DNA from: Escherichia coli
GTDB lineage: Bacteria > Pseudomonadota > Gammaproteobacteria > Enterobacterales > Enterobacteriaceae
Reading direction: 5' to 3' (one strand)
Length of the DNA: 64,000 bases
NCBI RefSeq assembly: GCF_002854065.1
Contig: NZ_CP024151.1
The notes below the pieces were generated by a model. The model searched no databases. It saw only the letters and a program-made list of their open reading frames with translations, and was not told the DNA's origin. Shown here in pieces: positions 4,994 through 40,174 of this stretch (its first letter is position 1; the number at the start of each line of letters is the position of its first letter). A program made the translations under genes and the position numbers.

Positions 4994-5003
4994 GATACTT
5001 TCG

Positions 5004-5787
<784 letters not shown>

Positions 5788-5791
<4 letters not shown>

Positions 5792-6429
5792 AACAGCTCC
5801 TCATAGGCACTCAGTGGTCGATGTTCCACCTGACTGACCTGCTGCCAGAGCGGGGCGTGATGCTCCGGCACTGTCTGCCAGCCAGACGATGCCGGACAGA
5901 GGCGATGTGAGGCCACCAGTTTCTCATTACTGTAGATCCGCAACTCGTCATCCAGCGATATTCGTATCGATACTGGCTGACCACACAGCGCTTCGGGAAC
6001 GCTGTAACGATTACCACCAACCTCGATATAGCTGTCCCAGGACACATGGCGGATGTCGAAGTAACTGGTATCGAAGTCCGTATCCGGTAACGGCTGCAGA
6101 TGTTCCTGCTCCAGCGCGAAGCGCTGTTCCGGCGTTTCTTTGAACTGGCGAAGCTCCCGTTTGTCAGCCACATCGGCTATCCATTGCTCCAGTTGTTGAT
6201 TAACATGAGTGAAGCTGTCGAACCTGCGGTACCGGACGAAGAAGTTCTCCTTGAGGTATTTCACCATCCGCTCAACCTTACCTTTTGTTCTGGCCCTGCG
6301 TGGACGGCATGCCCGTGGCAGGAAGTTATAGTGGTCGGCCAGCAACAGGAATCCGGAGTTGAACACGACTTTCCCGTTGTTATTCTTCAGCACCGCAGCC
6401 TTCTGGTTATCAACCAGCACCGTTTTCAC
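5788..6429 (-). pseudogene. istA: istA (IS21-family transposase) C-terminal fragment
   Basis: Translation ...[24 protein letters not shown]... is characteristic of the IstA C-terminal region; the N-terminal catalytic part is absent. Confidence 0.7.
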
Positions 6430-6990
6430 ACAACCACCGAATTTGATCCCTGAAAACTGTCAGCGCTGCGAGGACGAAGAAAGTATTACGGCTAAAGCCG
6501 TAATACCTCCCCATCCAGCTTCAAGCTATGTAGAAACTTATGTGGGTAGAGCAGTCCCGACAGGGCAGTACCGCATTGACAGGCCGTCAGGGCCACTTAC
6601 GAGCTTGTATGACAAGGGGGGCCGTCTGGATATAGCGAATTATTGTACGGTAAGCCTTTTTTGAACAGCCTTACCTATTGCTATAGAGGGGAACTCCTAC
6701 GTTATACGCCGCTTTCAGGGGATTCGACCTTAATGAGACAACTCAAATATGATCGACAACTTAAACGCGATAGTTGCTGATAAAATCAATCCATTACGCG
6801 TTTCAATTGATTAAATAATGCACTTAATGTACAAAAATTCCCGATCTCAAAACTGAACCCTAAAGATACCAGGCATCTCCCCCAGGAAGCGCCCTCATGC
6901 GTTTTCCTGTTCCGCCCCTGCCACCTACCTTCTGTTTCATACTTGTTGTATTATTGTTTTTGTTTTCAATCCCCAAGGAGACGTCGCTAT

Positions 6991-7158
6991 ATGACTGTGC
7001 GGGAGACAGAGGAAAACATTGAACAAATCTTCCCTGAGCTTTCGAACTTAATTGATATTATTAATAAATGGCTTTCCCATGGAAACATTGATCCTGAACT
7101 GGCACACTTCATCATTTATCTTCTTGATTACCTAACCACCACACACAAAAGCATATAA
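6991..7158 (+). CDS. Small hypothetical protein (55 aa)
   Basis: ATG at 6991 preceded by AAGGAG at 6976-6981; a rho-independent terminator follows at 7274-7301. No family recognised. Confidence 0.45.
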   Translation: MTVRETEENIEQIFPELSNLIDIINKWLSHGNIDPELAHFIIYLLDYLTTTHKSI

Positions 7159-7273
7159 AAATTTTCCTTGCACATCCATTTTTTTGCGAATATTATTATT
7201 CCTGCTGAATATGATTCAATATCGCACGCTACTCATCCATCCCAGGATAATGAGTACATAGGTTGAAGTTTCA

Positions 7274-7301
7274 ACACCCCCATTACGGGGGTGTTTTTTT
7301 T
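7274..7301 (+). terminator. Rho-independent terminator
   Basis: 8-bp GC-rich stem ACACCCCC / GGGGGTGT with a 5-nt loop, followed by a T7 tract. Confidence 0.7.
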
Positions 7302-7776
7302 ACCAATAAACACAAATCACACCATCGCCATACTCTGTTTGCCAGACATCGATTGGTAAATATGCGTAACTCGCTATAATACAAAAAGAAAAATCAGAAC
7401 CAGAAACCAGTTTCCAGATAAAAAACACCCTCCCGAAGGAGGGGACAGACACATTCATATTTCCCAAAACAGGAATTTTTATTTTTATGACGCATTAATG
7501 AAGTTACTTCATCTCCAGTAGATTAACTTCATTTAAAGTGGCGATCAATCATATTTATTACGACTCTAAACTATTACAACAACCACAATAAGATATCACC
7601 TCAAATATAAAAGATAACTCTTACAAAAACGTTCCGAAAACAAAAAATACAGATAAACACCAATAAAAAACAGAAAACTCTTACACATTTAAAGATGGTA
7701 AAATAATATAGAACTGTTAGTCTAATGGAGAAGGCGCATCTGATTCAGAGCAATCTATTGCGAAGAATCAGAGTAA

Positions 7777-7815
7777 CAGGGCCCCATGATATAATCATGG
7801 GGCCCTGTTGCTTTT
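7777..7815 (+). terminator. Strong hairpin terminator (13-bp perfect stem)
   Basis: CAGGGCCCCATGA-TATAA-TCATGGGGCCCTG followed by TTGCTTTT. Confidence 0.6.
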
Positions 7816-8059
7816 ACAGATGTAAAAACGACCAATCATTTAACATCTGTTATCGGCACCGCCCCGGACGGGTTCGGCGCAAATATGGTATGGTACCAGC
7901 CCGGCAATTCACCTGCCGTGCAATCTGACGAAGCAGTACCGGCGTATGCAGATATATCGTCCAGACATATCTGCCGCATTCAGGCGGTGAGTAAAGCCTT
8001 CTCTCTCAAAAGAGGAGCAACAGTTATCCACAGATTCTGGGGATAACTGCGAAAAGAAT

Positions 8060-8200
8060 ATGTGCCAGGAAAGTCGGCTCCCGGGAAAAAGACCGCTGGC
8101 GGCGCAGCTGCTGGATACGAAAGCTGAGCTGAAAGGATCCCGGGAGGACGTCCGTAAACTTCAGTCCCTGGCCCGTCATGACGGGAAGGTGAAAAAGTGA
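8060..8200 (+). CDS. Small hypothetical protein (46 aa), first gene of an overlapping pair
   Basis: ATG at 8060; its TGA stop (8198-8200) overlaps the GTG start (8197) of the next ORF in a GTGA junction. Not in the ORF track because it is under 60 aa. Confidence 0.35.
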   Translation: MCQESRLPGKRPLAAQLLDTKAELKGSREDVRKLQSLARHDGKVKK

Positions 8201-8838
8201 ATGCGGACACCTGGACCCGCCTGCAGGCCTTCCGACATGCTCTGGAGCTGACTTCCTGTGAGGCTTCTCTCACCGCCGGGTATGATCACCTGAAGGATTT
8301 CCCGGCCGGTTGCAGCGAGCTGGCCAGCCAGACGCTGACTGATTATCTGACGGAAGACGGCAGCAACCTGTACTCCTGTATTGTCGGTATGCAGTGGGAT
8401 AATGGTCCTGGCAGATACGGCCACGTCATTGCCGCCCCTGCCAGGGACTATATCGACCTGACCCTTGATCAGTTTCCAGGCTATCATAACCGGATTGTGG
8501 CAGAGCCCGTTGAGTCCGGCGGACAGCTCGCGGCAGACCTCAACAGGGAGCCTGCCATCAGTACAGCTGATGGAATAGTGGCCAGCGCATCAGATAAGGT
8601 TAATTACATTACTGAACAGAAAAATCGCCAGCCAATGGTGATCATTACAGAATGTTACAAGCTGATCAGAATAACGGCAAGATTTATACCAATGTGCCAG
8701 TCATCTCAACTCTTCCAGCACCAGGTATTCCCTCGCTTATTTATCATTTCAGACGTTGGCTCCTGCAGTTTGTCCAGGAACACCTTAGATCGTTTAGCTA
8801 CTGACTGGAAGGTGACACTGTCCATCCTGTCGCTATAG
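8197..8838 (+). CDS. Hypothetical protein; 3' end uncertain
   Basis: 213-aa track ORF starting at GTG; no recognisable domain; the tail overlaps a convergent minus-strand ORF (8706-9026), so the true stop is uncertain. Confidence 0.35.
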   Translation: MNADTWTRLQAFRHALELTSCEASLTAGYDHLKDFPAGCSELASQTLTDYLTEDGSNLYSCIVGMQWDNGPGRYGHVIAAPARDYIDLTLDQFPGYHNRIVAEPVESGGQLAADLNREPAISTADGIVASASDKVNYITEQKNRQPMVIITECYKLIRITARFIPMCQSSQLFQHQVFPRLFIISDVGSCSLSRNTLDRLATDWKVTLSILSL

Positions 8839-39264: not shown

Positions 39265-39839
39265 ATCCGATTAGTTGTTAATCATATTTAATCATAGTGA
39301 TTACTTTCAGACGGAACAAGACAAATAATGCGCGTCAGCGCATGTAAGGCGGCATACGGTGGTTACATGTAGCACAGGAGTAAAACCGCCGAAGCCCGGC
39401 GTAAGCCGGTACGGACTGATAGATTTCACCTTACCCATCCCCAGCCCTGCCAGACCATACCCGCTTTCAGCCATGAGAGAGCTTCTGTGCGCGGTCGGAG
39501 TGGTCCCGACGAGGGTTTACCCGAAGTCGGGGCGTATCTCCGCGTTAGCGGGCCGTCAGGGCCGCTTACGAGCGTGTACTGAGAACTTCCAGCCAGAAGA
39601 CTGACAGCAATGATAATGTAGTTACAACATTCATAATTAAAAGCGACTCTGTTCCGGCCCGAAGGGCCGGGGCGGGGCCGCTTTTCAGTTATGAGGGAGG
39701 GGCTTTGTGGTTTCAGTTCTGCGCGGGACCGGGGTTTTCCTGGTGGTTGTATTTGAGTGTTGTAACTAAAATGGCTCCGGTCGGGGCCCGCCGCTTGCGG
39801 TGGGAGGTGCATATCTGTCTGTCCACAGGACAGGCAGTG

Positions 39840-40174
39840 AATAGGTTTTCTTTTTAAATGAATGTAGTTAAGTAGTTTAAAGGAGATATAAACAGGTGTT
39901 TAAAAGATACATTGCACCCTGTAAGGCTGGCGGATGGCGCTTTATGACATGAACGGTTGTAACCTTATGGGGAAGTCCCTTGCAGTTAAATGTGGATAAG
40001 CAAAATTCCTCGTCTGTGAGGCGTGTTTTGTATCAAAAACAGGAGGGACCGGATGCACCTGAAGGTGGATGATGAGGTTGTTTTTTGTATGCGGTGCTGT
40101 TTTTTTGTTCGCCGACAGGCTTCAGGCGTGCAGATGCCTCCGGTGCGGGCCGGATTATTCAGAGGAGGTCACTT
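39840..40174 (-). promoter_or_regulatory. RepFIIA origin region downstream of repA1 (approximate), with a DnaA box at 39991-39999
   Basis: Position immediately 3' of repA1 as in R1/R100-type replicons; TGTGGATAA (reverse complement of TTATCCACA) at 39991-39999; GC-rich hairpin-prone sequence at 39640-39800 further downstream. Confidence 0.45.

Follow-up and report, generated by a model that had tools for sequence, protein, structure and literature searches.

Does the interval at positions 7400–7815 of an Escherichia coli IncF plasmid hold a gene for a small RNA (sRNA), a regulatory element, or only spacer DNA? The window, by which we mean the whole stretch of DNA analysed here, comprises 64,000 nucleotides of contig NZ_CP024151.1 (assembly GCF_002854065.1), and it is identified as an IncF plasmid of the F type by its Rfam RNAs, its RepFIB initiator and its match to F. 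F is the reference conjugative plasmid, and in the ~1.9 kb between its pif/ccd side and the gene for a protein of 213 amino acids (aa) just one open reading frame (ORF), of 55 aa, is annotated. Within 7400–7815 there is no annotation in any plasmid record examined. An initial annotation, made from the sequence, had described an AT-rich, non-coding interval with two strong hairpins and several repeats, and had suggested an sRNA or cis-regulatory locus.

We find that the interval is a non-coding spacer in the accessory region of F-type plasmids, lying between the block that carries the known sRNA gene uptR and the operon on the RepFIB side. Most of the features singled out by the initial annotation are chance or dispensable, and it overlooked uptR, taking the terminator on the minus strand merely as a boundary. 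Its reading of the locus as a small RNA is plausible; the plus-strand unit that it implied is, however, the least supported one, and the repeats it cited occur at chance level. Judged from sequence features, a new RNA would be better supported on the minus strand, where it would end at the terminator at 7443–7418. There we tentatively propose, with somewhat less than even confidence, a non-coding RNA of ~125 nucleotides (nt) that would run from 7541 to 7418, convergent with uptR.

An intrinsic terminator facing uptR

The uptR gene (7204–7295, plus strand) lies 105 bp left of the interval and matches Rfam model RF02568 over its full length (1–92) with 123.3 bits (gathering score 100), although PGAP annotation of it is absent in every record examined. 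UptR (Guigueno et al. 2001, J Bacteriol 183:1147) is reported to have experimental support and to be linked to an envelope-stress phenotype. The gene has a promoter-like site at 7169–7196 and a canonical terminator at 7273–7295 followed by T8, both on the plus strand, and there are 10 variable sites in its 92 nt. No match to RF02568 at gathering score is found within 7400–7815, the sole true match being 7204–7295 itself.

Across 120 bp from the UptR terminator, a second one faces it from the minus strand (7418–7443), with the sequence CCCTCC-TTCG-GGAGGG followed by TGTTTTTTAT (7427–7418). The predicted RNA would have a 6-bp stem with five GC pairs, a UUCG loop and then UGUUUUUUAU, a layout that meets the definition of an intrinsic (Rho-independent) terminator. 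Read on the plus strand, the hairpin (CCCTCC-CGAA-GGAGGG) spans 7428–7443; the initial annotation had recognized both the hairpin and the T-tract that follows it, but had set the former 1 nt too far left, at 7427–7442. A strict scan of the window, asking for a perfect 6-bp stem with at least five GC pairs, a loop of 3–8 nt and then T6, returns two sites, this one (7443–7418, minus strand) and that of UptR, against 0.07 per window in dinucleotide shuffles. Stem and T-tract are unchanged in five of five aligned plasmid lineages and in further copies, and variable sites start again at 7412–7413, directly beyond the T-tract. A single record among ~360 (NZ_CP014110) carries an insertion sequence (IS), ISEc13, inside the hairpin at ~7439–7440. 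This terminator is the one genuinely non-random element of the interval, and by its sequence it probably marks the end of a so far unannotated small RNA next to uptR.

A conserved island behind the terminator

Population variation was analysed in place of distant relatives because searches for the latter failed: blastn in its distant mode found none in plasmids, E. coli genomes or phages, and 100,044 species genomes, scanned twice by pattern, gave zero matches. PLSDB has 362 plasmids with the block at 7150–7950, and of 5,426 complete E. coli genomes 365 (~7%) carry it, nearly always on plasmids. Copies of the interval are present in ~360 plasmids at 90–100% identity, with every copy found being at least 90% identical, and the DNA of homologues of the neighbouring 55-aa protein is likewise all near-identical. 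In the classical F plasmid (NC_002483.1) the interval corresponds to 39483–39898, and window positions 7150–7950 match 39348–40148 on the reverse strand with 99.3% identity; its neighbours there are the hypothetical ORFs of 55 aa (window 6991–7158) and 213 aa (window 8197–8838). A metagenome scan yielded 42 copies, the most divergent of which (L052) has 92.8% identity. In all, 52 copies were aligned, drawn from PLSDB records, from contigs reached via the 55-aa protein and from the 42 metagenome contigs; the last were picked by an exact match to 7428–7450 and so are uninformative on the terminator stem.

Three structural lineages can be distinguished. F-type copies are of full length, pUTI89-type copies lack a 76-bp segment (7665–7740), and EC11/RHB07-type copies lack a 244-bp segment (7780–8023) and have different DNA further right. 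The pUTI89 type is the commonest, with 21 of the 55 copies compared and ~57% of sampled PLSDB rows.

In the 52 aligned copies, 16 sites of 118 vary at 7296–7413 and 24 of 123 at 7542–7664, that is 40 in 241 nt for the pooled flanks, compared with 4 of 128 at 7414–7541. The left edge of this quiet island is the end of the T-tract, and its right edge lies 7 nt downstream of a TATGAT hexamer (7553–7548, minus strand), a possible −10 element (predicted start ~7541) that C7550T turns into TATAAT in the EC11 lineage. The island is retained in all three indel lineages and in L052, its few substitutions affect a predicted loop, a terminal base pair and a weak A-U helix, and the sub-threshold Rfam alignments on the minus strand all end at 7418. 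Within 7418–7541 there is no ORF that stops before the terminator.

Of the units that would fit the terminator, the quiet island and the −10 hexamer, one of ~125 nt is the simplest. We propose that a leftward transcript would end at the 7443–7418 terminator, with its 3′ end at 7418–7421, and would consist of a 5′ stem-loop of 10 bp (arms 7533–7524 and 7506–7497), an A/U-rich, single-stranded middle part, and a GC stem with a U6 tail. Such a build is usual for chaperone-binding, trans-acting sRNAs of enterobacteria. In NC_002483.1, where the RNA would lie on the plus strand of the record, the predicted 5′ end corresponds to 39757 and the 3′ end to 39877–39880. The A-rich stretch at 7542–7740 with its direct repeats would be unconstrained filler.

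Within the island, 7497–7533 holds three copies of ATGAAGT/ACTTCAT, which make up a 10-bp inverted repeat, AATGAAGTTA/TAACTTCATT, and, overlapping it, the palindrome ATGAAGTTACTTCAT. They could give the candidate RNA its 5′ stem-loop or, alternatively, serve as a binding site for a protein. Another possibility considered, a 22-aa ORF after the Shine-Dalgarno-like AAGGAGG at 7436–7442, was rejected, as it needs an AUU start and meets an early stop in L052.

Several observations weigh against the candidate RNA. Its −10 hexamer is only a 5/6 match, with no usable −35 and no extended −10, and the whole unit folds no better than shuffled sequence (z = −1.6). Conservation of the island is modest in relation to the block (p = 0.009, or 0.05 without the 23-nt search pattern), and 16% of the 128-nt windows in the block are equally conserved. 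Compensatory pairs number zero among copies that, at 92.8% identity or more, are too alike for covariation. The Rfam covariance search suggested by the initial annotation gave no family at gathering score in 7400–7815 on either strand (Rfam 15), the best matches covering just the hairpin, with miRNA models (30.7 bits; gathering score 100), or just the terminator. The neighbourhood has suffered IS insertions and large deletions, which shows that the plasmid can do without it. Since the block is a mosaic that includes a fragment of a ColE1 origin, the terminator may be the relic of a lost gene. Rarity, distribution and variation of the sequence features are shown here; transcription of any of them, the 5′ end of the RNA and every function are inferred. 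Predicted RNA–RNA duplexes, whether between the candidate and UptR or between either of them and neighbouring translation starts, were none better than shuffles, and a literature search found no sRNA or transcript-start maps of F or pUTI89.

Many of these points can also be read in favour of a decayed mosaic spacer without present function, in which terminator, palindrome and promoter-like sites would be recombined leftovers and the conservation that of a young block. This would account for the ~360 copies being so alike, with none more distant, for a block that holds a 69-bp ColE1-type fragment (85% identity) and a 225-bp stretch 70–76% similar to unrelated plasmids, for the tolerance of the 76- and 244-bp deletions and the IS1 and ISEc13 insertions, and for other parts of the block that are equally invariant with no known function. 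We nevertheless consider it unlikely, though it deserves to be taken seriously: a terminator this good is expected 0.07 times per 64 kb, and here it faces the terminator of a proven sRNA; diversity falls exactly between the T-tract and the −10-like hexamer, being four to five times higher on either side; and the ISEc13 copy in the hairpin is confined to one record.

Should the candidate minus-strand RNA exist, a second trans-acting small RNA would be encoded next to UptR on F and on pUTI89-type plasmids, which are common in the clinic, and it could affect the physiology of the host or the cost of the plasmid. Otherwise the interval can be treated as a dispensable spacer, its repeats as noise and the palindrome described below as a rearrangement hotspot.

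Transcription from the plus strand

On the plus strand, a sigma-70 promoter-like site at 7353–7380 (TTGGTA-N16-TATAAT, 10/12 consensus, predicted start ~7387) has hexamers that are unchanged in 51 of the 52 copies; the exception, L052, has TTGGTT-N16-TATAAT with a 4-nt indel abutting the −35. Transcription from this site would go rightwards through the interval, and may pass the 3′ end of the candidate RNA in the antisense direction. Sites matching at least 10/12 positions number 7 in the window, against a mean of 12.4 per window in local shuffles, and because they are commoner in the shuffles the match at 7353–7380 is not evidence on its own. The deficit of strong sigma-70 matches may reflect selection against spurious promoters. 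As for other sigma factors, a sigma-E promoter on the minus strand was rejected, since EC11 and RHB07 do not share its GGAAC (7634–7630).

The sRNA idea of the initial annotation corresponds to a plus-strand RNA of either ~430 nt, from 7353–7380, or ~105 nt, from promoter-like sites at 7680–7709, that would end at the hairpin at 7772–7812 and its UUUU. The constancy and good consensus of the 7353–7380 hexamers would suit such a transcript, as would the fold of 7714–7822 (−52.6 kcal/mol, z = −7.6) and the fact that both substitutions seen in the hairpin stem keep a G.U pair on the plus strand only. We consider it improbable all the same. The z-score is wholly due to the palindrome, whose U-tract is only four T long and is not called by the terminator scan. 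In the pUTI89 lineage, which makes up the majority of copies, the promoter and 5′ half of the short version are deleted; the hairpin is deleted in the EC11 lineage; and in pGD17-2 an IS1 at ~7714, between the promoter-like sites at 7680–7709 and the palindrome, splits the short RNA and parts promoter from hairpin. Moreover, the −35 of the short version falls in a hypervariable stretch, the ~430-nt version crosses 300 nt of unconstrained A-rich sequence, and its promoter belongs to the class of match that is more frequent in shuffled than in real sequence. Three independent lineages have lost the promoter, the hairpin or the link between them, and the plus-strand unit is the least robust of those considered.

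A single-copy palindrome and its right-hand module

The second hairpin of the initial annotation had been given as a plus-strand terminator with a 13-bp perfect stem at 7777–7815. The palindrome is real and stronger than that, with a 3-nt loop and arms of 16 bp that pair perfectly (7775–7790 and 7794–7809), or of 19 bp with one G.T (7772–7812, plus strand); its RNA fold has −37.7 kcal/mol (z = −8.9). Such a stem exceeds by far what a terminator requires, but only TTTT (7812–7815) follows, which fails the scan's rule of five T in eight bases. Conservation of the hairpins in related plasmids, on which the initial annotation had made its reading depend, is split, with the minus-strand terminator kept in five lineages and the palindrome absent from the EC11 lineage.

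The palindrome occurs once in the window and always at the same locus in 316 plasmid records, and it has 0 matches in the 100,044 species genomes. A dispersed palindromic element (REP or MITE-like) was rejected on this account, as no other context is found in the 316 plasmids and no copy in the species genomes. The palindrome accompanies the 213-aa gene, and both are lost in the EC11 lineage. Two stem substitutions are seen, T/C at 7774 and C7804T in L052, each of which keeps a G.U pair in plus-strand RNA and gives a mismatch on the minus strand; with n = 2, this retention of pairing on one strand is only a hint. In CP057088 the loop is flipped from ATA to TAT, while CP091396 has a perfect pair in place of the single G.T. 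Both are typical products of template switching at quasi-palindromes.

Functionally, the palindrome would belong to the right-hand module, an operon of a 46-aa ORF and the 213-aa gene. Its most probable role, on sequence grounds, is that of an RNA hairpin on the plus strand that would insulate or attenuate rightward transcription. The loop region also holds a perfect extended −10, TGATATAAT (7787–7795), and we therefore considered whether the palindrome is a protein-binding operator lying over a promoter aimed at the 46-aa/213-aa operon. That its presence tracks the presence and absence of the 213-aa gene would agree with an operator, and the flipped loop of one record would reverse such a promoter. 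We give this only a small chance: no regulator has come to light and Pfam finds no domain in the proteins encoded nearby, the substitutions break the symmetry of the DNA yet keep the RNA pairing, no second copy exists anywhere searched, and transcription would start inside the right arm, ~260 nt upstream of the first ORF. An RNA hairpin is the reading that we favour.

As DNA, the palindrome is a hotspot of deletion and inversion. The 244-bp segment absent from the EC11/RHB07 lineage, which includes the palindrome, is flanked by 9-bp direct repeats, GAGTAACAG (7771–7779) and GAGCAACAG (8015–8023); the left one is the base of the palindrome, and the two are identical in CP091396. This loss is what one would expect if the palindrome had promoted a slipped-strand deletion. 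Slippage and template switching at hairpins leave signatures of this kind.

Further right, the last bases of the unannotated 46-aa ORF (8060–8200, plus strand), GTGA, include the GTG start codon of the 213-aa gene (8197–8838), an overlap suggesting that translation of the two is coupled. Pfam recognizes no domain in either product. The junction of the 244-bp deletion is followed directly on its right by a perfect DnaA box, TTATCCACA (8024–8032), which faces an inverted TTATCCCCA (8038–8046); the pair (8024–8046) lies a short way upstream of the 46-aa ORF and is kept in the EC11 lineage. The whole window has 30 DnaA-box-like sites against 14.6 expected.

Reading frames and repeats in the A-rich spacer

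That the interval is AT-rich and has no credible ORF, as the initial annotation stated, is borne out by our analysis. Its GC content is 28–36%, and the plus strand is 40% A. The longest ORFs have 67 aa (plus strand, 7725–7928) and 55 aa (minus strand), and coding readings of these and of the 33- and 30-aa ORFs were rejected, none having a Pfam match or being conserved. The ATG of the 67-aa ORF sits in the 76-bp segment missing from most related plasmids, together with the second copy of AACTCTTACA, the promoter-like sites at 7680–7709 and the start codon of the 30-aa ORF on the minus strand.

No part of the block varies more than the stretch at 7540–7690, and the A-rich spacer with the AACTCTTACA motifs (7542–7700) has 22 variable sites per 100 nt, the block's highest value. 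The duplicated AACTCTTACA of the initial annotation does exist, but its first copy is at 7616–7625 (5 nt from the 7611–7620 reported) and the second at 7676–7685; an exact direct repeat of at least 10 nt arises in 18% of shuffles, and C7618, which completes the perfect repeat, is found in just 2 of 50 copies. The internal inverted repeat fares no better as evidence. CTGATTC/GAATCAG lies at 7740–7746 and 7765–7771 on the plus strand, its left arm abutting the 76-bp deletion; a 7-bp inverted repeat with a loop of up to 20 nt appears in 44% of shuffles; and G7742 is present in 5 of 50 copies, the other 45 carrying an A that makes an A.C mismatch. We also rejected iterons of an origin or incompatibility region, there being just two 10-nt copies, at chance level, perfect in 2 of 50 copies and located in the hypervariable stretch; the DnaA boxes are outside 7400–7815.

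The 30-aa minus-strand ORF (7688–7596, MCKSFLFFIGVYLYFLF...) is hydrophobic, is followed downstream by a strong terminator of its own strand and has promoter-like sites opposite to it, so that one might think of a type I toxin–antitoxin system with this peptide as toxin and an antisense RNA from the plus strand as antitoxin. The ORF has no Shine-Dalgarno sequence, however, lies in the most variable stretch, and owes its hydrophobicity to the T-rich composition of the strand. Its start codon (7686–7688) is altered in EC11, RHB07 and others and deleted in the pUTI89 lineage, and because it is lost in most copies such a system is effectively refuted.

Genomic setting of the block

The window contains Rfam matches to sok (RF01794), CopA (RF00042), AS-traI, AS-traG, AS-pc02 and UptR, and a RepB-family RepFIB initiator at 10013–10990. 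Left of the block, ORFs at ~5000–6439 resemble, by eye, fragments of IstB and IstA of the IS21 family. Homology to F, pUTI89 and EC11 begins exactly at 6440, and the block shared by F and pUTI89 reaches ~250 bp further left, which implies that the IS21-like element truncated the block in the present plasmid. The segment at 6640–6864 (225 bp) is 70–76% similar to segments of many unrelated enterobacterial plasmids, from 4.5-kb ColRNAI plasmids to large IncF ones.

Between this segment and uptR, the 55-aa ORF (6991–7158, plus strand) has a good Shine-Dalgarno sequence (AAGGAG), and only near-identical relatives of it are found among 5.8 billion proteins. A 36-bp deletion of in-frame length (7048–7083) is seen here in two metagenome copies (L009 and L010).

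Comparison with known systems

The behaviour of the palindrome as DNA resembles that of known quasi-palindrome rearrangement hotspots in the deletion between 9-bp repeats, the one inverted loop and the one corrected pair. The comparison differs in its reach, explaining what happens to the DNA and not the function or presence of the palindrome.

The plus-strand segment at 6861–6929 (69 bp) shares 85% identity with the 3′ region of RNA II in ColE1-type origins, and thousands of small Col plasmids match the ColE1/pMB1-type origin fragment at 6835–6929. UptR lies at +343 to +434 from the 69-bp fragment and on the same strand, and RNA I of two ColE1-type plasmids spans offsets of +353 to +459 and +365 to +469. 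Unlike in these plasmids, the would-be RNA II region is filled by the 55-aa ORF with its ribosome-binding site, and the origin-proximal C-rich stretch is not conserved in the block. The RNAI model (RF00106), which scores 67–86 bits on ColE1-type plasmids as a control, has no match up to E = 10 in window positions 7190–7560 (a 371-nt search), and there is no similarity to ColE1-type plasmids across 6930–7345. Although offset and strand are suggestive, we rejected UptR as a relic of RNA I, as the model is unmatched and the stretch between the origin fragment and uptR shows no similarity; a common origin of UptR and RNA I is a low-probability proposition. In a wider and very unlikely scenario, UptR, the convergent candidate RNA and an antisense promoter would make the uptR block a compact module that regulates by RNA alone, derived or co-opted from ColE1-type antisense control of replication, of which the origin fragment at 6835–6929 survives, and acting in trans on envelope or stress functions of the host.

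Sok, CopA, AS-traI, AS-traG and AS-pc02 are, like the candidate, short structured RNAs of IncF plasmids with intrinsic terminators, and the opposing promoter-like site at 7353–7380 could give a comparable overlap of sense and antisense. Sok, CopA and the AS RNAs overlap defined targets, namely hok/mok, the repA leader and tra genes. The candidate, in contrast, overlaps no gene, and none of their models matches the interval.

The closest parallel is UptR itself. The candidate would lie in the same conserved block of F, convergent with uptR, with the two terminators 120 bp apart; the sizes are similar (92 nt for UptR, ~125 nt for the candidate), and both are non-coding. Their ends, a GC stem with a U-tract, are equally canonical and are the only two such terminators in the window. 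The candidate differs in being on the other strand and in having no similarity to UptR in sequence or by covariance model; UptR has a recognizable promoter and experimental support, whereas the predicted promoter of the candidate is weak. If confirmed, the candidate would be a previously unannotated RNA of an already known sort, set tail to tail with the one sRNA of this block known so far.

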